Part shown: piece after piece, positions 1-8,648 of the stretch
Layout of the letters: the number at the start of each line of letters is the position of its first letter
Position numbering within the stretch: position 1 is the first letter of the stretch
IMG/VR virus record: IMGVR_UViG_2541047870_000002
Reading direction: 5' to 3' (one strand)
From: a virus
Taxonomy: Duplodnaviria > Heunggongvirae > Uroviricota > Caudoviricetes
DNA length: 42,586 nucleotides
Position numbers and translations under genes: made by a program
Notes under the pieces: model-generated
What the model saw: the letters and a program-made list of their open reading frames with translations, nothing else
What the model was told of the DNA's origin: nothing
Databases searched by the model: none

Positions 1-465
1 TCACTTTGATTCAATTTTGAAACTTTTTTTAACCACTAAAATCATGCAGCTAATCACTTCTGCAATGAGGTTAAGAGATAGCACGATAGCAAAAAGTTCT
101 AAAGCAGTAAATAGCTTGCCTTTAGAAGGGATAAATTCGTGCTGAGGATAATTTACTAGTGGTATGTCATAATTACGTAAATAGGGAAGGAAGATTGTTA
201 CTGCCAGACACATGACCAGTAATTTCAAATCTAATTCTAAACTATCTAAATAGTCCGTAAAGTCTGTGCTTTTCTCGCCCTTATTAATGACAGCCAAAAT
301 TCCGAAGATAACGGAGATACCTGCGGCAATACCTCCAAGTATTGAACCTATTACTCCAGCAGAAGCCTGCTCAAGTAAGGTATAAATGGTTTTATCAGTC
401 GATGCTAATGCTAAGCACAAAAAGAAGGTAGCTATAGCTTTAATCCAGACAGTTAGATTTTGCAT
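1..465 (-). CDS. small multi-pass membrane protein (about 4 predicted TM helices), cargo gene
   Basis: 154-aa ORF with four long hydrophobic stretches; start overlaps upstream gene stop by 26 nt; AT-rich; window begins exactly at its stop codon. Confidence 0.55.
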   Translation of the reverse strand: MQNLTVWIKAIATFFLCLALASTDKTIYTLLEQASAGVIGSILGGIAAGISVIFGILAVINKGEKSTDFTDYLDSLELDLKLLVMCLAVTIFLPYLRNYDIPLVNYPQHEFIPSKGKLFTALELFAIVLSLNLIAEVISCMILVVKKSFKIESK

Positions 466-1336
466 TTTTGAACGTATACCTGTTTTGATGTAATGCTATG
501 ATCTCTTTAATATCATTTGCTGAGTAGCCATCAAGTTCAATTTCTGATATCTCACCTTCGATCAGCACGATTTTGGCTGTCTGATTACTGGATACCGTAG
601 TAGATTTTGACTTGAGTGTCTTACGTCCTTTAATCAACCATGACCCGCCACCATCTTTGACCCAGTCAACAAGAGTCTCAGCCCAATGAGAACCTTTGAG
701 TTTCAAATTGCCATCTTTGTTTTCAAAAATAGTGGTCACAGTATTTGCATTGGTATCTTTTTCAAGCTTCCGTAAATCATTGGTTAACGCTTGCTTACTG
801 CTTCCGAAGATATTCGGAGTAATCAGCGTAAAGCTGACTTTGTCGATAAATTGAAGCCTATGGTATTCTGACCAAAAATCTTCCATTTCAAGACAAGGCT
901 CTATAAATATTCTAAGTCCTAACTGAGCCAAATAGTCGTTATTGGCTAGATCTTCGAACGCTTTAGCAACTTGTTGCGCATCCTTGAAAACAGCGGTTTT
1001 CCTCTCAACCAGTAACACCTGCTCTACTTTGTCCCAAATCCATACGATAGGTGGATAGTTGTCTACATCGTACTCTCGAAAGTCTTTATCATGTCCTTTA
1101 ATCTTTTGCAGCTTTGATATGACTCCAGCCATAACACCATCAGTAGGTTTTATGCTCAATTTCAGGGTGTAACTAGTTTTCTTATGAACGGAAGGTGTTG
1201 ATGACGTCATGTGTAAATTTTTTGCAGCGATAACCATAGCATTTTCAAAATGAGAGATATCTTTCTGAACAGTTCCTTTCGAAAAGAGGTCTGGATCGCG
1301 CGGTCTCATTAACACACGTAAGGCATACAACTGCAT
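440..1336 (-). CDS. hypothetical soluble protein, no recognisable domain; cargo gene coupled to downstream membrane protein
   Basis: 298-aa ORF, AGGAG RBS 8 nt upstream of ATG at 1336; no HExxH, P-loop or other motif seen; AT-rich relative to phage core. Confidence 0.55.
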   Translation of the reverse strand: MQLYALRVLMRPRDPDLFSKGTVQKDISHFENAMVIAAKNLHMTSSTPSVHKKTSYTLKLSIKPTDGVMAGVISKLQKIKGHDKDFREYDVDNYPPIVWIWDKVEQVLLVERKTAVFKDAQQVAKAFEDLANNDYLAQLGLRIFIEPCLEMEDFWSEYHRLQFIDKVSFTLITPNIFGSSKQALTNDLRKLEKDTNANTVTTIFENKDGNLKLKGSHWAETLVDWVKDGGGSWLIKGRKTLKSKSTTVSSNQTAKIVLIEGEISEIELDGYSANDIKEIIALHQNRYTFKNAKSNCLD

Positions 1337-1451
1337 AAGAAAACTCCTGTAAACTATTTGGTTTCATTATTCCATAAAACCAAGCACTTTCAAGAGCTTA
1401 ATTTTCTTTCAATTCTGTATGCATATACAGTATCATTCAATTTTGTAAAAT

Positions 1452-2579
1452 TCAAACCTTGATTTTTGCCCATTCCTTACCACGATCATCATGGTATTTA
1501 GCTGTCTGGTTAGGCGATTTATGTCCCAGAAGTTTTTGGGTGTCGACGCCCTGAGCTTCGTAAAGTCGCTCAGATAAAGATCTTTGTTCATGGAATGTGG
1601 CGGGCGAACCTTCACCCCAGTCAATGCCTGCTAAATCCCTCGCTTTACTGAAATTCATCGTCAATGTATTGGCTTTTACTTGCGCGCCACGTTCAGCCTG
1701 TGAAGTAGTACGAAAAAAATGTACAAGGTATGGGCTGACTGCATAGTCACGGCAGCGGGCTACTACATCGCGTAAACTCCAGTTAATTGCATTGAGGCGA
1801 AGGGAAAGCGGGATGGCGATTTTGCTCCCGGTTTTTTCTTGGATGACGTGAAGATGATCATCCCAAATATCGCTAAATTTCATACGTGAGATATCACCTA
1901 ACCGTTGGCCGGTAACCAGTGCTAACAGCATGGCATTCCCCATATAACGATGGCGGGCATCTGCGATATCAAAGATTTTTTGCCATTCTTCAAGACTTAA
2001 CCGTTGTCGGGTAATTTTTCTTCTGGGTTGTTTGGTTGCCAGTGCTGGATTATAGCCCGGAGGGACTTCCCCATAGTGTTGTGCCTCCTTGAATACATCA
2101 ATTAGAACGGAGCGGACTACTTGCGCCATCCTCGGTTGCCCGGCAGTGATATACTCGTCAAGTAATTGTGCTATATCCCTTACATCAACTGATGAAATTA
2201 ATTTCATTCCTGCTCGTTCCCTGAGCAAGGATACTGGTTTGGCTTTCTGTTTATAGGTGTTTAGCTTTATATCGCCACTTTCCAGTCTGTCATCCTGGAT
2301 TGCTTGATAGCGATCTAACCAGGTTGACGTTGTGATTGCTTTTCCTTTGCTGGTTGCGATCCTGTCACTGATAGCCAGAATCTGCCGGGTTCTTTGCTCA
2401 GCCAGGCGTGAATTTGCCTCAGTGGCAATAGCAATGGCTTCAGCTTCGTTTGTGCCTAAAGAATGAAACTTCCCGGTCACTGGATGTTTATATCGCCAAT
2501 AGACTTTATTTACTTTTCTACTATAAAGCGGATACAAGTTCGGGACTGAAACATTATTTTTACGTGGTCTGGCTGCCAT
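1452..2579 (-). CDS. int: tyrosine site-specific integrase (lambda Int family)
   Basis: 375 aa; C-terminal catalytic region with conserved R, H-x-x-R and Y context (…LLGHKSPNQTAKYHDD…); adjacent excisionase; prophage end position. Confidence 0.9.
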   Translation of the reverse strand: MAARPRKNNVSVPNLYPLYSRKVNKVYWRYKHPVTGKFHSLGTNEAEAIAIATEANSRLAEQRTRQILAISDRIATSKGKAITTSTWLDRYQAIQDDRLESGDIKLNTYKQKAKPVSLLRERAGMKLISSVDVRDIAQLLDEYITAGQPRMAQVVRSVLIDVFKEAQHYGEVPPGYNPALATKQPRRKITRQRLSLEEWQKIFDIADARHRYMGNAMLLALVTGQRLGDISRMKFSDIWDDHLHVIQEKTGSKIAIPLSLRLNAINWSLRDVVARCRDYAVSPYLVHFFRTTSQAERGAQVKANTLTMNFSKARDLAGIDWGEGSPATFHEQRSLSERLYEAQGVDTQKLLGHKSPNQTAKYHDDRGKEWAKIKV

Positions 2580-2805
2580 TACTTAAAATCCTTTGTAGAA
2601 TAATAGAATCATTTTTCTTGATGACAGGAGTAACTAATTCCCCAACTAACTCTGCGTCCTCACGCACTCGCCATAGTCGACCTTGTTTCATTGCCGGTGG
2701 ACAAAATAAATTCTGCTTAGCATAACGACGCAATGTGGACACGCTTGGAGGATTACTTCTGTATTTTTCCGCAGCCCATTCCTCAAGTGTCAGCATTTGA
2801 AGCAT
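2560..2805 (-). CDS. xis: excisionase (Xis-like); start chosen at second ATG with GAGG RBS
   Basis: Small basic protein immediately upstream of and overlapping int start; ORF track 2560..2820. Confidence 0.6.
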   Translation of the reverse strand: MLQMLTLEEWAAEKYRSNPPSVSTLRRYAKQNLFCPPAMKQGRLWRVREDAELVGELVTPVIKKNDSIILQRILSNGSQTT

Positions 2806-2848
2806 TTTTGATAACCTCATTTCTTTTGCTACAAAACTATTTCACTAG

Positions 2849-3397
2849 TTAATTTCGCTGTCTGGATTGTTTATGCATCTTATGCAGCTCTTTAAAGCGT
2901 TCCATAAACATCCCGTAGGCATGGCCCGGTGCCAGTGGAATCACGTTGAACATCTCTGTTGCCGGGATGCCTTCCAGTACAGGCCAGAAAGAGCCATCAT
3001 CAAGCCCGAGATCGCGGCGTTCGGTTGCCAGCATGATGAGATCGGCATATTTCACGGGCGTACTCATAACCGGGGGTAACCCGTATTTCTCACGGATTAC
3101 GGCGTCTATTTTTTCTTCCATCTGTTTATAGTCAGGAAGAAGGCGTTTCAGTGGAGCGGGGATGTCCTGGCAATACGCTTCTGTTGCATCATGCATTAAC
3201 GCTTCAAAAGCAAATTCCTGCGGTACCAGTTGGCTGCAAAGAACCGCATGTTGGGCGACGCTGTAGAAGTGTGAAAGATGTCCTGCAAAGCGACAGATAT
3301 TTGAAAGGGAAACCGCGATATCGTTAATAACGATGTCGTCTTTATTTATCCTGTCATAATAAAAATGCTTCCCAGAAAAAGTTTTAATAAATGACAT
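2849..3397 (-). CDS. HD-domain phosphohydrolase (YfdR-like 5'-deoxynucleotidase family)
   Basis: H…HD motif (AQHAV…LMHDATEAY); start set at internal ATG with GGAGAA RBS (ORF track 2849..3460). Confidence 0.7.
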   Translation of the reverse strand: MSFIKTFSGKHFYYDRINKDDIVINDIAVSLSNICRFAGHLSHFYSVAQHAVLCSQLVPQEFAFEALMHDATEAYCQDIPAPLKRLLPDYKQMEEKIDAVIREKYGLPPVMSTPVKYADLIMLATERRDLGLDDGSFWPVLEGIPATEMFNVIPLAPGHAYGMFMERFKELHKMHKQSRQRN

Positions 3398-3525
3398 TTT
3401 GTTCTCCACGTTATTTGCGCTGCACCGCACTGAATTCTGGTAAAAGGAAGCCCTCACCATCCGGCGATTATTGAGTTAATTACGTTTCCATAAATGCCCC
3501 CGCAGGGGCATTTGCAGTAATCAAA

Positions 3526-4350
3526 TCAGGCGGTGAAAGTACCAATAAAGGTTTCTACTTTGCTGTCTTTGAATTTCTCAACAAGCAGATCGCGAAATTC
3601 GTTAGCCATTTCTTCCTGCACCGCCTCCATCTGAATAATGCGCAGAACAAGTACAGGACGATCGCCAGTGATAATGCTGAGGCGTAATTTAAAAGAACGT
3701 TCTTTCAGACCTTCAAACGGAACGCATTTAAATTCAAATGCCACTGGCATAATGTCTTTGGTCTTCGCTTCGACAGACTCCATCAGGGAGCGTTTGCCGC
3801 TGAAGTCATTATCTTCAAAATCAGCGGTCTGGTTTGCTTCAATCGTGATTTTACGGACAGCCGCAGCCGCTTTTGTTGCCTGGATAGCGTCACCATTAGC
3901 ATCAAAACCCACAAGGTAGTCGGCCCAGTCTTCAATCCATTCTGCCAGTGACTTCTGGGAGTTACGCTCGCTGTTAACAGACAACAGTGCAGAGAACGGT
4001 GCTGTCTTTTTCAGTTTGAGAGTGGCGGTGTTATCTGCGTGACCTGGTTCATCAATAGTACCCAGGTTAAGCACACTGACGGCACGCATATTATCAGCAT
4101 CGATAAAGCAGCGGGTGCCTTCATCTGCAAGATCTTTAGAATAACGGGTAAAGTCATCGATGCTGGCAGTGGAAAGCGCACCACGGAAACGGAAGCGATT
4201 TAAATTAAATTTTTCCAGATCATGAATGCGGAAATTCTCAGGCAATGCCACAGCATCGGCACCAATCTTACTGATAATTTCATTAACACCCTGAGCAGAA
4301 ATAAGAGCATGGATTTGATTAATTGCGGTTGCGTCTAAGTTCTGAGACAT
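3526..4350 (-). CDS. YfdQ-like prophage protein (DUF2303-type), function unknown
   Basis: 274-aa ORF; resembles from memory the CPS-53 prophage YfdQ family; gene order YfdP-like/YfdQ-like/HD hydrolase matches that prophage. Confidence 0.55.
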
Positions 4351-4415
4351 AATAAGTCCTCACTATATAAAGATATTCAGTGATGAGATAAATAATCAGT
4401 TAATTAAGAACGATA

Positions 4416-4778
4416 TTAATGACCTGCTGCGCGGAGTTTTCCGTCAGGTTCACCGGCAAGAGTCAGTAATTGTCCCTGGTCTTCCTGCAGAATAGTCAGG
4501 CGACCACCGCGATTGACATACATCGGCGTTTCGGTGGTGTCTTCTTCAGAAATTTTCCCGCGGTTAGTCGGGCGAACATATGAGAGTTTGTGTTTGATTT
4601 TCACACGGTTCTCATCAAATGGTTCGATTTCCAGGTTGAGTGAGACCTTACCTTTGGTTTTCGTGTTCATCACACCGGAAGCGACTTCACTGAGAACTGC
4701 GCCGATTTTGGTTTCAAATACGCCGCCGTCCAGCTCCCCGATAAATGCCTGCACATCAGTACTGCGTTCGCTAGCCAT
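4416..4778 (-). CDS. hypothetical early protein (YfdP-like), 120 aa
   Basis: Start at internal ATG with GAGGAG RBS; the upstream extension of the 226-aa track ORF is Arg/Cys-rich junk. Confidence 0.5.
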   Translation of the reverse strand: MASERSTDVQAFIGELDGGVFETKIGAVLSEVASGVMNTKTKGKVSLNLEIEPFDENRVKIKHKLSYVRPTNRGKISEEDTTETPMYVNRGGRLTILQEDQGQLLTLAGEPDGKLRAAGH

Positions 4779-4827
4779 TTTGCTGCTCCTCATCATATCG
4801 ACCCTGCAAGGCCGATTAGTTTCTCCA

Positions 4828-4914
4828 CAAAACAGAGAAGAACACCTGCGGTGGCAGCCGCCCGGATGGATTGAGTTATGAGCCCGTCGTCCGGTGATGC
4901 TCTTCTCTGTTTTG
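4828..4914. repeat. long inverted repeat (about 14-16 bp arms, about 55 nt loop) in GC-rich non-coding block
   Basis: caaaacagagaagaac … gctcttctctgttttg are reverse complements; region 4780-5246 lacks a credible ORF. Confidence 0.5.
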
Positions 4915-5179
4915 TAAAAAGGACGGTACCAGCCGGAAGCAAGGGTACAAGCTGGTACCGCCAAGACTACACACAGCATAAAGTTGTGGTGCCGGGTGCC
5001 TCCCGGTGCCTGGCGAAGGTTGCACACCAGGCGGGTGGGTATCCACAGAAGGTCGACTGTCAGCCTCAACCTTAACCCGCGTGCGCTGAGCAGCATTCAC
5101 CACAACGCTAAGGATTCTCTCTGGTTGAAAATACTTAGCTGTTATGTGCCTGCTTTTAGCCACATCAGGCGAGGTGGAC

Positions 5180-5232
5180 CTGGTTATTCCCCAACAACAA
5201 GGATTCGGTTAATCTGGTTATCCCCAACAACG
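5180..5232. promoter_or_regulatory. two direct repeats CTGGTTAT(T)CCCCAACAAC spaced 34 bp, immediately upstream of the 144-aa gene
   Basis: Near-identical 18/19-mers at 5180-5199 and 5214-5232; RBS and ATG of 5247 gene follow. Confidence 0.45.
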
Positions 5233-5246
5233 CAAAAGGAAAAGAA

Positions 5247-5681
5247 ATGTCCGGTAATATCTACACGTTGTACAAATCCCACTGTGAAAATGTTGGAAAG
5301 TATCGGGGCATTGAAATCAGTGGGATAGTGTCATCAGTCGAAATAAGCAAAGTGGAATCAAGGGCAACATTACTTACTCTTCTGGATCTTGTCTTACATG
5401 AGCACCGGAAGAAATTCGGCACTCCCTATAATCAGTTGAATGGGAAAAAGGCTCTGGTTCACCTTATTCTGATGAAGCATCACTGGATGCCAAAACAGAT
5501 TAATGAGATGAAATTTGATGAACTTCTTCTTTCAATTCAGGATGAACTCACACTTGATAAAATAAGCGTAACCGCCCAGAAATTTTTAGATTATCGAGAC
5601 TGGAGATCACAAATTCATCACTTTGATGATTTTGACGAAAATGAATGGGATCCTAATTTGTCTGCACAATATCTAAAGTAA
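5247..5681 (+). CDS. hypothetical protein (reverse-oriented moron within the leftward early operon)
   Basis: 144-aa ORF with AAGGA RBS; AT-rich; no recognisable motif. Confidence 0.5.
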   Translation: MSGNIYTLYKSHCENVGKYRGIEISGIVSSVEISKVESRATLLTLLDLVLHEHRKKFGTPYNQLNGKKALVHLILMKHHWMPKQINEMKFDELLLSIQDELTLDKISVTAQKFLDYRDWRSQIHHFDDFDENEWDPNLSAQYLK

Positions 5682-5859
5682 CATCCTGTGATAAAACCGT
5701 GATTTCCTGATCCAGTTTTTTTAAGGAGTCTATTGTTTCCTGTCGATAAGACAGCACTTCACGAAGCTGGTTTATAGCTGCCAGCTTCTTTGTCATCCAC
5801 TCATAAATTTCCTCATCTGTGTAGCCAGGCGCGACGATTTTGGGTTCTGTTTTGTGCAT
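5653..5859 (-). CDS. small acidic protein, first gene of leftward early operon (N-position)
   Basis: Strong RBS GAGGAGGTG 5 nt before ATG at 5859; 68 aa; no arginine-rich motif; 3' end overlaps the convergent 144-aa gene. Confidence 0.5.
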   Translation of the reverse strand: MHKTEPKIVAPGYTDEEIYEWMTKKLAAINQLREVLSYRQETIDSLKKLDQEITVLSQDVTLDIVQTN

Positions 5860-5904
5860 TTCACACCTCCTCAAGTTATCAGTTACTTGTTGATGGGGAC
5901 CAGA

Positions 5905-5942
5905 TTGTTAAAGAGCTAAGCGTCCTGTAGGGCGCTTTTTTG
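5905..5942 (-). promoter_or_regulatory. boxA-like element (GCTCTTTAACAA on minus strand) with adjacent hairpin: candidate nutL; the same hairpin plus T6 reads as an intrinsic terminator on the plus strand
   Basis: Minus-strand RNA would read …GCGCCCUACAGGACGCUUAGCUCUUUAACAA…; hairpin 5919-5936 followed by TTTTTT on plus strand. Confidence 0.4.
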
Positions 5943-6016
5943 TTGCTAACGAATCATCCTGGACTTCATATGCCCCAGGCGGCTACTTCGTGGGTGTCCT
6001 GCCTGTTCGTTGTCTT

Positions 6017-6080
6017 AACACCTTTAAGTTGTAATTTAGTTGTGGTTTTGAATGTTGTCAACAACTTTATGTGGTTTGAA
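6017..6080. promoter_or_regulatory. left operator cluster (OL-like): repeated AAGTTGT / ACAACTT half-sites
   Basis: Motifs cacctttaagttgt, tagttgtgg, caacaactttatgtgg are near-identical to motifs in the cI-cro intergenic region. Confidence 0.5.
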
Positions 6081-6124
6081 CGAGTAGCCAAGGAGTGCAA
6101 GGATTATCAAAAAAAGGAGGTTGT

Positions 6125-7015
6125 ATGGAAGACGCGCTTTACGCTTTTAATTACACACAGAACCGGGACAAGTTATTTGCTAACTTGATTAGCATCATTG
6201 ATGGAATCATTGCAGATGGAGTTGTCCGTGAAGAGGAGGTTCTTTACTTAGATACATGGTTACTTGAAGCAAAGCAGATTATCAATAATGGAGTTATAAA
6301 AAGTCTATCTGCTCGGGTGTCGGATATTCTTGCGGATGGAATAATCACATCAGAAGAACGTGATGACCTTAAAAATAGCCTTCTCCAAATACAGAGGGAA
6401 ATTCTTGATATCCCTGAAATTGATTTTTACTCCAAGGATGTAGATGTCCATTTACTTAATGGACTATGTAAAGGATTAATTGCTGATCGGAACTTAACTC
6501 AAGAAGAAATAAGATATCTTAATTGGTGGCTTGAGCAAAATGGAGCTTTGAAGAACAACTACCCAGGAAAAAAACTTTATGCACTTGTAAAGGAAATTCT
6601 TAAAGATGGTGTTATTACTGAAGATGAGAGTTTAACTCTACATAAGGCATTAGTAGACTTCACAGGATGTGACTTGGAAAGTGGGGTGGTGGATGGTTTG
6701 GCGACCAGGCTGCCTATTGATGTAGGGGCTTCGATAGAGTTAGAGGGTAAAACCTATTGTCTTACAGGCACTTTTGTTGCAGGAAAGAGAGCCGTAGTTG
6801 AAAATTTGATTAAAAATGCTGGTGGGAACATCAGTAGTGGAATTACTCAAAAGTTGGATTTTTTAGTAATTGGGACGCTTTCCTCCCGTGATTGGAAATT
6901 CTCTAGTCACGGAAGGAAGATCGAAAAGGCTATATCTTATAGGGATGATAATGGTGCAAAACTTAAAATTATTTCTGAAGAAATGCTTTTCGATGCATTA
7001 CCAAGTTCGCGATGA
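6125..7015 (+). CDS. TerB-like tandem repeat protein with C-terminal BRCT domain (immunity-region moron)
   Basis: Four repeats of the ADGxIxxEExxxL type in the N-terminal two thirds; C-terminal …GKTYCLTGTFVAGKRAVVENLIKNAGGNISSGITQKLDFLVIG… resembles the LigA-type BRCT fold; AGGAGG RBS before ATG at 6125 (ORF track starts at GTG 6095). Confidence 0.55.
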   Translation: MEDALYAFNYTQNRDKLFANLISIIDGIIADGVVREEEVLYLDTWLLEAKQIINNGVIKSLSARVSDILADGIITSEERDDLKNSLLQIQREILDIPEIDFYSKDVDVHLLNGLCKGLIADRNLTQEEIRYLNWWLEQNGALKNNYPGKKLYALVKEILKDGVITEDESLTLHKALVDFTGCDLESGVVDGLATRLPIDVGASIELEGKTYCLTGTFVAGKRAVVENLIKNAGGNISSGITQKLDFLVIGTLSSRDWKFSSHGRKIEKAISYRDDNGAKLKIISEEMLFDALPSSR

Positions 7016-7684
7016 CCAGAATACCCTACCTATAACATGAATTCTGGCTCGTCTATCTTCAAAGGTGAGTATTTCATCTGGGTACTCATCTTTGTTGAAG
7101 CTTCTAAGAATCAAGCCACCGTCAGGTAAGTTGATAAGTATTTTAACCCTTAGCAATACACCATCTCGTACGGCATAAAGATCGCCATCACGAATAGGAA
7201 CGGTTTGAGAAATATCAACGGCAACAAGATCTCCATTATTGAGAACCGGTAATAAACTGTTCCCCCATATTTGTACGATCTTGGCATTAGATGCACATAC
7301 GCCAGATTTTCTCAAATCTGCTCTTCTTAACGGAAACCAGTCAATAGCTGATTCAACTATTTCAGCCAGACATCCGTTACCTGCCGATAACTCGACATCT
7401 AAAACAGGAATGTTTACGAAAATATCGGGGTCTAATGCGGTGCTTTCTGCTTCTTTTACAACAAGATCAGGTATGGATGCGTTGTCTTCAATACCAAGTT
7501 GTAACCACTTTTGTGATACACCTAAAACTTTTGCAATTTCTTTAATTTTGCGCGGTTGTAGAGTTTCGCCATTCTCTATTTTGGCTACAGATTGTTGTGA
7601 AAGTCCAATTTTTTCAGCTAGTTGAGCTTGGCTCATGCCAGCTTTCTCTCTACCTATCTTTAATCGTTCTGCCAGTGTTTTCAC
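6998..7684 (-). CDS. cI: CI-like prophage repressor (N-terminal HTH_XRE, C-terminal S24/LexA-like self-cleaving peptidase)
   Basis: HTH …MSQAQLAEKIGLSQQSVAKIENG…; C-terminal peptidase-like domain; GTG start with GAGGG RBS; divergent from cro. Confidence 0.85.
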   Translation of the reverse strand: MKTLAERLKIGREKAGMSQAQLAEKIGLSQQSVAKIENGETLQPRKIKEIAKVLGVSQKWLQLGIEDNASIPDLVVKEAESTALDPDIFVNIPVLDVELSAGNGCLAEIVESAIDWFPLRRADLRKSGVCASNAKIVQIWGNSLLPVLNNGDLVAVDISQTVPIRDGDLYAVRDGVLLRVKILINLPDGGLILRSFNKDEYPDEILTFEDRRARIHVIGRVFWSSRTW

Positions 7685-7710
7685 AACATATCCCTCTCTT
7701 TTTTGATGAG

Positions 7711-7800
7711 GTTACAACTTTATGTTTTAGCTTTCCAACACCTAAAAGTTGTGGTAAAAGTTGTTAATGTTGTATTCTTGCAGCTCGTAACAACTTAACT
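7711..7800. promoter_or_regulatory. right operator cluster (OR-like) with divergent promoters for cI and cro
   Basis: Repeats ttacaactttatg, cacctaaaagttgtgg, aaagttgttaatgttg, cgtaacaactta between cI and cro starts. Confidence 0.55.
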
Positions 7801-7819
7801 ACCAAAAAAGGAGAAAGCT

Positions 7820-8068
7820 ATGACACCTGAGCAATTAGCCTTATCGGAGGCAATCGCTCTGGCTGGTGGTCAATCAGAATTGGCTCGGAAGCTCACAGCC
7901 AGCAGCGGTCATTTAGTAAAGCAACAACATGTCTGGAACTGGTTGAACAGAGAAAAGCGTCCCCCTGCAAAGCTCTCGATATTCATTGAAAAGACCACTG
8001 GCATATCAAAAGAAAAATTACGTCCAGATATTTTTCAAAAGATTAAAGATTCATCAGATGAAAAGTAA
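7820..8068 (+). CDS. cro: Cro-like HTH regulator
   Basis: 82-aa ORF divergent from cI, AAGGAG RBS, small basic HTH protein. Confidence 0.65.
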   Translation: MTPEQLALSEAIALAGGQSELARKLTASSGHLVKQQHVWNWLNREKRPPAKLSIFIEKTTGISKEKLRPDIFQKIKDSSDEK

Positions 8069-8090
8069 CCACAGTTTTAAGGAGATAGCC

Positions 8091-8648
8091 GTGGGTAAGC
8101 ATCACTGGAAAATAGAAAAACAGCCTGAGTGGTACGTGAAAGCTGTCAGAAAAACTATCGCGGCGTTGCCGGGGGGTTACGCTGAAGCCGCTGACTGGCT
8201 GGATGTAACAGAGAACGCTTTATTCAACCGCCTTCGTGCAGATGGCGATCAGATTTTCCCGCTGGGATGGGCAATGGTTTTACAGCGTGCTGGTGGCACT
8301 CACTTCATTGCTGATGCTGTGGCGCAGTCTGCAAATGGCGTCTTTGTGTCTCTTCCTGACGTCGAGGATGTGGACAACGCCGATATTAACCAGCGTCTGC
8401 TGGAAGTCATTGAACAGATCGGCAGTTATTCAAAACAGATTCGTTCAGCAATCGAAGACGGTGTAGTGGAACCGCATGAGAAGACAGCAATTAACGACGA
8501 GCTGTATCTCTCAATTTCGAAGCTGCAGGAACATGCAGCACTTGTCTACAAAATTTTTTGCATTTCAGAAAGTAATGACGCCCGCGAGTGTGCAGCTCCG
8601 GGCGTCGTGGCGTCGATTGCTTCTGGTTGTGGAGAAACTAACGCATGA
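8091..8648 (+). CDS. CII-position regulatory protein (YmfL-like), function uncertain
   Basis: GTG start with AAGGAG RBS just after cro (ORF track 7986..8648); position equivalent to cII. Confidence 0.4.

Follow-up and report, generated by a model that had tools for sequence, protein, structure and literature searches.

In phage P22, sieB is an exclusion gene of the immunity region, adjacent to the repressor gene, and of the two Rex proteins of lambda, RexA is a sensor and RexB a membrane protein. A repressor-adjacent slot is held by RexAB and likewise by BstA of the Salmonella phage BTP1, a protein with a DNA-binding domain and a tight association with repressor loci (PMC8585504). Genes in such a slot would be expected to be expressed in the lysogen. 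In P2-like prophages, the interval between cI and int has been named a defence hotspot (Rousset et al. 2022). In the Vibrio cholerae phage K139, orf2 and cI are on one strand, with orf2 after cI and before glo and int, in an annotated lysogenic operon PL-cI-orf2-glo-int; its product (NP_536630) is present too in Kappa, VPUSM 8 and 919TP. Here we describe a relative of K139 Orf2 in the immunity cassette of a tailed phage (IMG/VR record IMGVR_UViG_2541047870_000002), whose 42,586 nucleotides we refer to as the window. The coding part of the cassette contains the following features:

6114-6120, plus strand: Shine-Dalgarno sequence AAGGAGG, read from the sequence and kept in related loci
6125-7015, plus strand: BRCT-family coding sequence, 296 aa (open reading frame with Shine-Dalgarno sequence; PHROG 3989 match; RefSeq WP_000389078.1 at the same coordinates)
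6998-7684, minus strand: cI-type repressor, 228 aa, with HTH_3 and Peptidase_S24 domains (Pfam), convergent with the BRCT gene
7820-8068, plus strand: Cro-like protein with a helix-turn-helix of the Pfam YdaS_toxin family

The open reading frame at 6125-7015 is a genuine prophage gene with a strong ribosome-binding site: its ATG starts 4 nt past the Shine-Dalgarno sequence, and RefSeq names the product 'BRCT domain-containing protein'. The cassette is ordered OL - BRCT gene - cI - OR - cro, with a mosaic boundary at OL1. As the original prediction described, the gene sits between PL/OL and cI on the opposite strand and converges on the repressor gene, with an overlap of exactly 18 bp (6998-7015). 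It is also AT-rich, as had been stated (38.0% GC compared to 48.9% for the window), but this is not peculiar to it: cI (40.2%) and cro (42.2%) are low in GC as well, so AT-richness is a property of the whole immunity cassette. A search for an ion-channel partner gene within the window yielded none, no ter genes were found near the BRCT gene among the open reading frames and annotation of the window, and an Rfam scan of positions 5500-8200 returned no known RNA elements at E≤1.

The gene had been called 'inserted'. A recent arrival would not fit its distribution among enterobacterial prophages, where the convergent, overlapping layout with an orthologous cI occurred in all 80 loci compared, and where complete E. 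coli genomes contained cI in 48 cases and the BRCT gene in 47. Sequence identities of the two products run in parallel in these loci (58% for the BRCT protein versus ~65% for cI in one comparison, 100% versus 99% in another). Judged by these comparisons, the BRCT gene is a fixed component of the immunity cassette that has diverged alongside cI.

The family extends well beyond this group. PHROG 3989, a group whose annotated function is 'unknown', aligns with the window protein from end to end (E 1.5e-128; residues 2-295, profile positions 2-295 of 296), and the family comprises more than 1,000 clusters (50% identity) at E<1e-30. Its architecture, thought at first to be unrecognised, is indeed covered by no described defence family, but is known to databases as PHROG 3989 and K139 Orf2. 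In P2-like prophages the BRCT gene directly follows cI within the lysogenic operon, and the order cI-BRCT-cargo-int recurs in Aeromonas, Aliivibrio and Oceanimonas prophages and in most P2-like loci from IMG/VR. Presence is variable: K139-type cI occurs in 35 phage records and the BRCT gene in eight, E. coli RMDEC465 has an internally deleted BRCT gene and retains cI and OL, and the gene is truncated in three further loci (L036, L037 and L094). Variable presence, together with these deletions and truncations, indicates that the gene is accessory and non-essential. Homologues are found as well without any repressor, in small integrative islands, in several marine gammaproteobacterial MAGs, where the surrounding genes (TonB receptor, SPFH, ABA4-like) are conserved and the setting looks chromosomal, and in V. 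harveyi among housekeeping-type genes. A specific tie to S24 self-cleaving repressors was considered and rejected, since the cI of K139 is of the Phage_CI_repr/CI_C type.

The domain structure of the 296-aa protein was examined with an AF2 model (mean pLDDT 83.7), hhalign and profile searches, and comprises three parts:

6149-6409, plus strand: four-helix bundle 1, aa 9-95, repeats 1 and 2, with D31/E38 and D71/E78 (AF2, hhalign)
6422-6673, plus strand: four-helix bundle 2, aa 100-183, repeats 3 and 4, with D121/E128 and D161/E168 (AF2, hhalign)
6737-6997, plus strand: single C-terminal BRCT domain, aa 205-291, with conserved T214, G215, R222, S254-R255-D256-W257 and K265

Within the N-terminal half, a four-helix bundle has been duplicated. 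The two copies (aa 15-86 and 105-176) align with an hhalign probability of 99.5% (E 3.7e-22); of the four repeats, the first matches the third and the second the fourth (E ~1e-14), and a D-x6-E pair is present in every repeat, which bears out the predicted four-repeat architecture. In the model, the helices of bundle 1 span residues 3-29, 36-52, 56-69 and 76-94, mostly at pLDDT 81-95. The helical domain is acidic (pI 4.5) and the BRCT domain basic (pI 9.2). A membrane or secreted protein was rejected (Kyte-Doolittle maximum of 1.52 in a 19-residue window, TM segment absent); the product is a soluble cytoplasmic protein made of a helical duplication and a single BRCT. Short forms of the family (~205-215 aa) begin roughly where bundle 2 starts. 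Longer relatives carry fused extra domains, X1, X2 and X3, which have no Pfam match and thus give no functional clue.

The repeats had been labelled 'TerB-like', a label that we could not confirm. The window protein has no match to TerB (PF05099) in Pfam at E≤1, and no match to a TerB fold appeared in its fold search. Matches occur in seven of 46 family members, all of them weak (best E 0.048), and the family consensus reaches 16.3-16.6 bits against a Pfam cut-off of 24.4 (E ~0.01, profile positions 9-39 of 118). SHOCT_2 and GA_3 reach scores equal to or above that of TerB. TerB homology of the four repeats is thus not supported by these profile searches.

The predicted C-terminal BRCT domain was recovered by both sequence and structure. 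Pfam PF00533 matches aa 206-290 of the window protein with 29.0 bits (gathering cut-off 21.3) and is found in 46 of 46 family members scanned, and the fold search confirmed the BRCT alpha/beta fold. The nearest solved sequence is the BRCT of RFC1, whose T, G, R and K align with T214, G215, R222 and R255, residues that are invariant or at least 90% conserved across the family. We take these positions to be those of the RFC1 phosphate-pocket residues (T/S-G, R, K/R); phosphate-binding residues of the RFC1 BRCT were reportedly defined by Kobayashi et al. in 2006/2010. The best Foldseek neighbours are NAD-dependent ligases (9a6z_B, viral LigA, 9hu3_B). NCBIfam LigA models match a stretch from aa ~175 or ~203 to ~255 through their C-terminal end, with 20-30 bits against cut-offs of 369-1051. 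DNA ligase identity was rejected, since the match is limited to the BRCT and adenylation, OB, Zn and HhH domains are all missing; the frequent database name 'NAD-dependent DNA ligase' for this family is a misannotation.

Tandem BRCTs are phosphopeptide readers. The domain described here resembles instead the single, DNA-binding BRCT of the LigA/RFC1 type, which makes DNA ends or nicks a likelier ligand than phosphoproteins. The original prediction had named phosphorylated or DNA-end-associated partners as typical of BRCT domains. We infer from the resemblance to LigA and RFC1 that the protein probably binds DNA ends.

Operator-like motifs had been noted at 6017-6080, and these resolve into two palindromes. 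We defined the operator motif as a 15-bp palindrome, ACAmC-N5-GkTGT, with two copies at OL and two at OR. The control elements on either side of the BRCT gene and cI are:

6018-6032: operator OL1, ACACCTTTAAGTTGT, spanning the predicted PL start
6033-6061, minus strand: PL, the leftward early promoter, -35 TTGACA at 6061-6056 and -10 TAAATT at 6038-6033 (scan 10/12; conserved)
6061-6075: operator OL2, ACAACTTTATGTGGT, overlapping the PL -35 by 1 nt and abutting the -35 of the BRCT gene promoter
6076-6104, plus strand: candidate BRCT gene promoter, -35 TTGAAC at 6076-6081 and extended -10 TGcAAGGAT at 6096-6104
7711-7777: OR region, with operators at 7714-7728 and 7738-7752
7738-7711, minus strand: predicted PRM, -35 TTGGAA at 7738-7733 and -10 at 7716-7711 (from conservation)
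7749-7777, plus strand: predicted PR, -35 at 7749-7754 and -10 at 7772-7777 (from conservation)

The operators are conserved among prophages whose proteins are just 58-83% identical. The candidate BRCT gene promoter, with a 17-nt spacer and a predicted start at ~6111, was detected by phylogenetic footprinting only: a consensus sigma-70 scan of the plus strand found no promoter, and an alignment of 17 divergent loci showed that both promoter elements and the spacer length are conserved while the spacer sequence varies. The -35 reads TTGATT in most relatives and TTGAAC here, and the -10 hexamer (AAGGAT) is weak. No operator lies over the core of this promoter (-35 to +1); OL2 is immediately upstream, in an activator-like position. 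The layout at OR is near-identical, with the operator at 7738-7752 overlapping the predicted PRM -35 by 1 nt; the operator centres lie at about -43 from the predicted BRCT gene start and at about -41 from the predicted PRM start.

Because the predicted promoter of its gene is placed against OL2 in much the way that the predicted PRM is placed against the OR operator, the BRCT protein is most likely produced in the lysogen, its gene stimulated or at least left unrepressed by the repressor. This rests on the annotated lysogenic operon of K139 and on the predicted geometry of promoter and operator, and agrees with the initial suggestion that expression is wired to the repressor. Transcription of the BRCT gene would collide head-on with that of cI, and its transcript must enter the 3' end of cI, given the 18-bp overlap and the lack of a strong terminator between the genes.

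The genes beside homologues in other lineages are often of defence type. In three lineages the homologue adjoins an Ion_trans channel gene, and either of the two may come first; a KAP NTPase adjoins homologues in two cases. Other homologues lie next to TIR_2, to GmrSD and HEPN, to RT, PolA and RNase_T, or to SNase. In P2-like prophages, such neighbours are perhaps independent cargo of the same hotspot. The PADLOC check proposed with the original prediction gave a single result, a partial match to candidate PDC-S48 (E 2.4e-7; aa 119-251, profile positions 239-377) that takes in bundle 2 and the BRCT up to its middle and accounts for about one third of the 411 profile positions. No family member tested matched the full PDC-S48 profile, no PADLOC model is matched by the window protein over its whole length, and we found no paper that mentions PDC-S48. 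On the strength of this PADLOC search, a known defence system was rejected as the identity of the gene.

The reading that we favour, tentatively, is that the BRCT protein is made in the lysogen, where it senses DNA ends or nicks in the service of phage exclusion. It would bind to foreign DNA, whether entering the cell or being replicated, at 5'-phosphate ends, nicks or gaps, and would then be the part of a superinfection-exclusion or abortive-infection function that senses or blocks. In the window phage it seemingly acts alone; in other lineages it may work with exchangeable adjacent effectors (Ion_trans channels, KAP NTPase, TIR, exonuclease, SNase). A more ambitious and doubtful version makes the family the sensor of a new modular anti-phage system, composed of gate, BRCT, effectors and OL promoter. 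Here the acidic duplicated helical domain would gate the LigA/RFC1-type BRCT. On invading DNA, this BRCT would recognise 5'-phosphate ends, nicks at cohesive ends or replication gaps, and it would signal to Ion_trans channels (by depolarisation, on the logic of RexAB), to KAP NTPase, to TIR or to nucleases. The stand-alone lambdoid protein might block the sealing of cos ends by host ligase, a mechanism that is speculative given a window copy that has no adjacent effector or enzymatic domain. OL would carry a second PRM-like, cI-activated promoter driving the BRCT gene, so that the left operator mirrors the right. The searchable literature yielded no functional study of any family member; judged by gene neighbourhoods, a phage-exclusion sensor is a credible candidate role.

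Other explanations account for parts of these data. It is possible, though unlikely, that the protein is a cellular-type accessory of DNA metabolism, a nick- or gap-binding adaptor related to the LigA C-terminus but non-catalytic, which serves repair or replication and which temperate phages carry for conversion or fitness (helping with circularisation, integration or damage tolerance, for instance) rather than against other phages. The ligases among its structural neighbours, the LigA-like HhH_2 and BRCT module fused in some relatives, an NCBIfam match to an epsilon-BRCT protein, and an RNase_T/DnaQ-like gene that adjoins one homologue (L177) all agree with this, as do the marine MAG and V. 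harveyi settings, which point to a cellular role in those lineages. Against it stands a strong enrichment of the family beside the repressors of two prophage types that are unrelated to each other, and in small integrative islands, as well as its variable presence among phages with a common cI and its non-repair neighbours such as TIR, KAP NTPase and ion channels. A still less probable role is modulation of lysis and lysogeny, in which the protein would sense DNA damage and tune induction or maintenance together with the repressor; a 2026 preprint suggests this in passing for BRCT genes of Roseobacter prophage regulatory modules (PMC13345283). The position inside the immunity cassette, the strict linkage to and co-divergence with cI in enterobacteria, and a convergent overlap that could couple the expression of both genes are consistent with it. 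Physical linkage alone predicts co-divergence, however, and the partner repressors here and in K139 belong to unrelated classes, most phages with a K139-type cI do without the gene, RMDEC465 has lost it, and repressor-less homologues exist.

It is improbable that the gene encodes an early lytic or anti-host factor that is off in the lysogen and comes on with PL upon loss of cI. Such a protein could target host DNA ends, ligase or RecBCD, while antisense transcription into cI locked the switch, and both the location of its promoter in the OL region, divergent from PL, and the read-through into the 3' end of cI would suit it; the operator-free promoter core with OL2 upstream, and the K139-type homologue co-transcribed with cI from a lysogenic promoter, argue against it. 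Least probable by far is a TerB-type metal or tellurite stress protein fused to a BRCT: its ADG...E motif and scattered weak matches recall TerB, but these fall below the cut-off, cover 30 of 118 profile positions, are equalled or bettered by SHOCT_2 and GA_3, and come with no ter genes nearby.

We found no BRCT-based anti-phage system in the searchable literature. If the favoured exclusion reading is true, a BRCT-based DNA-end sensor would join the known prophage-encoded exclusion functions. The family is large and sits in the best-studied slot of temperate phages, beside the repressor, in lambdoid and P2-like phages alike. The small ion channels that repeatedly accompany it offer an analogue, open to direct test, of the RexAB mechanism that has so long gone unresolved, and the predicted PRM-like promoter at OL would be a new switch architecture. 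If the reading is wrong, the gene is still a conserved, often misannotated accessory of the immunity cassette.

Several known systems share parts of this arrangement. The single, bacterial DNA-binding type of BRCT also occurs at the C-terminus of LigA and in ligase subunit B of T5-like phages, but LigA has the four further domains that the window protein lacks, and the human RFC1 (p140) BRCT (PDB 2K6G/2K7F/2EBU) belongs to a eukaryotic clamp loader. TerB and SHOCT have in common with the family a short 'aDGxhxxxE' helix-turn-helix signature, but every profile match is sub-threshold, and PDC-S48 is itself an unvalidated defence candidate. K139 Orf2 is a homologue (33% identity, E 1e-38, 95% of the length), which is equal in length, has the same two-bundle and BRCT architecture, and is likewise adjacent to a repressor gene. 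Unlike orf2, the window gene converges on cI and has its own predicted promoter at OL, and its repressor is of the HTH and S24 type, whereas that of K139 is of the 186/P2 type (Phage_CI_repr and Phage_CI_C). Lambda rexAB, BTP1 bstA and P22 sieB share with the BRCT gene their genomic slot next to the repressor; they differ in that no sequence or domain relation was detected and that the BRCT gene is oriented opposite to cI. The pairs of BRCT and ion-channel genes in other lineages nevertheless recall the pair formed by RexA and RexB.

The window carries an e14-like lambdoid prophage in which, as had been predicted, a gene for a BRCT-domain protein (the BRCT gene) converges on the cI repressor gene, the 3' ends of the two sharing 18 bp (6998-7015). 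The predicted ORF and its strand are real, with AAGGAGG preceding the start codon:

6125-7015, plus strand: BRCT gene, ATG 4 nt after AAGGAGG; product of 296 aa
6998-7684, minus strand: cI repressor gene, product of 228 aa with HTH_3 and Peptidase_S24

The gene is AT-rich as claimed (38% GC; window, 48.9%) but not peculiarly so: cI (40%) and the Cro-like gene cro (42%) are AT-rich too, and low GC is thus a trait of the whole immunity cassette (left operators OL, BRCT gene, cI, right operators OR, cro). DNA likeness to sequenced phages (SfIV, SfV, SfII, Kati and others) ends at ~6013-6016, the edge of the left operators, and at the DNA level the BRCT gene was found in no phage record of the collection. 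Of 5,426 complete E. coli genomes, 47 carry it, on the chromosome and beside the repressor in every case, annotated as 'BRCT domain-containing protein'; E. coli RM7190 has an identical copy within a prophage integrated at icd. Beyond the integrase (1452-2579), window positions 1-1336 hold two minus-strand ORFs of 154 aa (reaching the window end) and 298 aa, neither with a Pfam match. RM7190 carries a DUF262 gene at this place, from which both ORFs differ, and this prophage end may be a variable cargo position.

The original prediction described the gene as inserted between OL and cI, a view contradicted by its linkage to the repressor and their co-divergence. At 80 of 80 enterobacterial IMG/VR loci it converges on, and overlaps by 8-17 bp, an orthologue of the same cI (with the window included, the overlap is 8, 14 or 17-18 bp in every enterobacterial locus), and identities of the BRCT protein and cI drop in parallel (100%/99%, 83%/84% and 58%/65%, respectively); flanking genes vary from locus to locus. 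Among complete E. coli genomes, cI was found 48 times and the BRCT gene 47 times, the sole exception being RMDEC465, which keeps OL and cI and has an internally deleted BRCT gene. Three IMG/VR copies are truncated. The constant linkage, parallel divergence, RMDEC465 deletion and truncated copies together indicate that the BRCT gene is a fixed but dispensable part of the immunity cassette and no recent insertion. The RMDEC465 remnant (positions 3161-3490 of retrieved locus L174) comprises the first ~30 nt and last ~130 nt of the gene, with the same OL operators and a cI 83% identical in DNA. No clear terminator was found between cI and the BRCT gene in the window or homologous loci, and convergent transcription could couple the two.

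Linkage to a repressor extends to P2-like prophages. In Vibrio phage K139, the annotated lysogenic operon, PL-cI-orf2-glo-int, has the homologue in second place. Prophages of Aeromonas, Oceanimonas and Aliivibrio share the order cI-BRCT-variable gene(s)-int, as do most of 25 distant IMG/VR loci, with additional genes between cI and the BRCT gene at some P2-like loci. The cI-int interval of K139-like phages is a defence hotspot (Rousset et al. 2022). K139 has a repressor of the 186/P2 type (Phage_CI_repr and Phage_CI_C), whereas that of the window is of the S24 type; K139-type cI occurs in 35 phage records, the BRCT gene in just 8. With two repressor classes and these counts, it is the repressor slot to which the gene is linked, not one repressor chemistry, and its behaviour is that of accessory cargo.

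A consensus scan gave the leftward early promoter PL and no plus-strand promoter. When the 260 nt upstream of the BRCT gene were aligned across 17 loci with proteins 58-100% identical, sharply conserved blocks emerged between variable spacers. The PL hexamers were among these blocks, and so were the operator-like motifs that had been predicted 5' of the gene:

6061-6056 (-35, TTGACA) and 6038-6033 (-10, TAAATT), minus strand: PL, from the consensus promoter scan
6018-6032: OL1, predicted operator over the PL start, ACAmCTTTAAGkTGT, conserved block in 17 loci
6061-6075: OL2, predicted operator, ACAACTTTATGTGGT, conserved block in 17 loci
6076-6081 (TTGAtt), 17-nt spacer, 6096-6104 (TGcAAGGAT), plus strand: predicted promoter of the BRCT gene, conserved blocks

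The plus-strand elements are read as an extended -10 promoter with a predicted start near 6111; the spacer is kept in length and not in sequence, and TGcAAGGAT is followed by an A-run and then the Shine-Dalgarno sequence. The same 15-bp operator type is present twice at OR, where the copy at 7738-7752 shares 1 nt with the -35 (TTGGAA, 7738-7733) of the inferred cI promoter. Measured from predicted starts, this OR operator is centred at ~-41 of the cI promoter and OL2 at ~-43 of the BRCT gene promoter. Lambda cI on OR2 activates PRM at this geometry. No operator was found over the core promoter of the BRCT gene. From this free core promoter and the PRM-like spacing we predict expression in the lysogen, matching the K139 arrangement, and possibly stimulation by cI; transcription from the predicted promoter must then enter the cI 3' end.

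Just left of OL, a terminator-like hairpin (5918-5945, plus strand; 8 pairs, then a T-run) would halt rightward ymfI-side transcripts short of the BRCT gene. The PL leader contains a 66-nt block (5946-6011, minus strand) conserved in 10 related prophages, in which RNAalifold placed a 5-bp hairpin (5958-5979, loop GGCAUAUGAAGU) with compensatory changes at 3 of 5 pairs; an outer stem is formed by CGAACA/UGAUUCG. This block had no Rfam match and may be a nut- or put-like antitermination or processing element.

The predicted C-terminal BRCT-like domain was borne out by sequence and by fold. Pfam places BRCT at aa 206-290 (29 bits; cut-off 21.3) and in 46 of 46 family members scanned, and an AlphaFold2 model built from a 46-sequence alignment (mean pLDDT 83.7) has nine helices in aa 3-180 followed by a BRCT alpha/beta unit, whose top Foldseek matches were NAD-dependent ligases, the RFC1 BRCT and ligase subunit B of T5-like phages. 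By sequence, the closest solved chain is the RFC1 BRCT (E 9e-4). Residues T214, G215, R222 and R255, invariant or nearly so across the family, align to T, G, R and K of RFC1, four positions that Kobayashi et al. (2006/2010) reportedly assigned to the phosphate groove. The RFC1 BRCT binds tightly to 5'-phosphorylated DNA (PMC9293009). The phage protein pairs a basic BRCT (pI 9.2) with an acidic helical region (pI 4.5), and no membrane segment was found in it. Many database entries are named NAD-dependent DNA ligase, which is wrong: LigA models match the BRCT alone, at 20-30 bits versus cut-offs of 369-1051.

The four predicted N-terminal repeats are also real. The two halves align with each other (hhalign probability 99.5%, E 3.7e-22), repeat 1 pairing with 3 and 2 with 4 (E ~1e-14), and in all four an Asp is conserved together with a Glu at a seven-residue distance. 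Profile tests did not support their TerB identity: the window protein had no TerB match at E≤1, only 7 of 46 members had matches, all sub-threshold, and the family consensus reached 16 bits (cut-off 24.4) over 30 of 118 profile positions. As SHOCT and GA-like motifs equal or outscore TerB, we call the domain a duplicated but unclassified four-helix bundle that carries a TerB/SHOCT-like motif; a TerB-type metal protein is extremely improbable.

The architecture, which the original prediction could not place in any described phage-defence or anti-defence family, is catalogued, as PHROG 3989 ('unknown function'; matched end to end, E 1.5e-128) and through its homologue Orf2 of K139 and kin (33% identity over 95% of length), but its function is blank and no PADLOC defence model matches in full. 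The sole PADLOC result was partial: aa 119-251 aligned with positions 239-377 of the 411-position profile of PDC-S48, itself an unvalidated candidate, and relatives tested likewise matched partially. Close relatives, with identities of 69-100%, come from Escherichia, Citrobacter, Serratia, Klebsiella, Enterobacter, Salmonella and others; Orf2 as query added hundreds from Vibrio, Aliivibrio, Aeromonas, Alteromonas and related genera, nearly all of 290-305 aa. When 1.84 billion representative proteins were searched with a profile, 5,283 clusters matched at E≤1e-3, of which 1,072 reached E≤1e-30. The two main forms have two bundles plus BRCT (~295 aa) or one bundle plus BRCT (~205-215 aa), the short form being present also in Pseudomonas and Sulfurimonas phages. 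Longer members add LigA-like HhH_2 plus BRCT, N-terminal transmembrane anchors, a third bundle, or recurrent domains lacking a Pfam match. We found no paper in the searchable literature giving the family a function; the sole comment is in a 2026 preprint, which suggests in passing a response to DNA damage for BRCT genes in the regulatory modules of Roseobacter prophages (PMC13345283).

Homologues elsewhere have varied neighbours. Mutually homologous Ion_trans channel genes accompany the homologue in an Aliivibrio prophage, directly following it across a 2-nt gap; in a Porticoccus MAG, following it across a 25-nt gap; and in Litorivivens, in a non-prophage context, lying upstream of it with an 8-nt overlap. 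The pairing thus spans three lineages, both gene orders, and prophage and non-prophage settings. Retrieved loci with neighbouring genes:

L178 (Aliivibrio) 4501-6158; L096 5004-6661; L171 4283-5903; L186 322-1939: BRCT-family gene and small Ion_trans gene
L177 (metagenome-assembled genome) 1-5382: RVT_1 (561 aa), DNA_pol_A (516 aa), RNase_T (217 aa) and BRCT-family gene, co-directional, last two overlapping

A KAP NTPase gene is downstream of the homologue in one prophage, and in an integrative island of Alteromonas the two are adjacent and divergent; further neighbours encode a TIR_2 protein, GmrSD plus HEPN, SNase, and, in L177, the RNase_T whose gene overlaps the homologue after RT and PolA genes. 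The L177 cluster adjoins a gene for a 1,977-aa DUF4011/AAA_11/AAA_12/DUF3320 helicase and looks like a defence-island type. A species-level scan (one genome per species) found 41 loci. Several marine gammaproteobacterial MAGs (L193-L200, L210) share a block of TonB-dependent receptor, BRCT-family gene, convergent SPFH/Band 7 gene and ABA4-like gene, which suggests a chromosomal, vertically inherited copy, and in V. harveyi the homologue sits amid ordinary chromosomal genes. The family is not restricted to mobile elements.

We tentatively favour a lysogen-expressed protein whose BRCT would bind 5'-phosphate ends, nicks or gaps and whose role would be to exclude foreign DNA; the acidic duplicated domain would be a regulatory or partner-binding module. 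In the window phage it would work alone, for example by occupying cos-end nicks or DNA ends; in other lineages it may be coupled to channels, NTPases, TIR or nucleases. The chromosomal synteny and ligase-like fusions in the family point instead to an accessory of cellular type, for repair or replication, that phages carry, a reading which we consider unlikely. A modulator of induction or maintenance acting with cI is decidedly unlikely, given the two repressor classes, the variable presence of the gene and homologues in repressor-free contexts, and an early lytic or anti-host factor, a reading weakened by the operator layout and the K139 arrangement, is very unlikely.

The family is known and named yet functionally blank, so the sequence itself is not new. 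Undescribed in the searchable literature are the BRCT-based architecture that occupies the repressor slot in two types of phage, the modular neighbourhood of the family and the PRM-like promoter at OL. The BRCT gene would belong among repressor-linked prophage accessory or exclusion genes, and the BRCT/Ion_trans layout of its relatives recalls a RexA/RexB-like sensor with a membrane partner.
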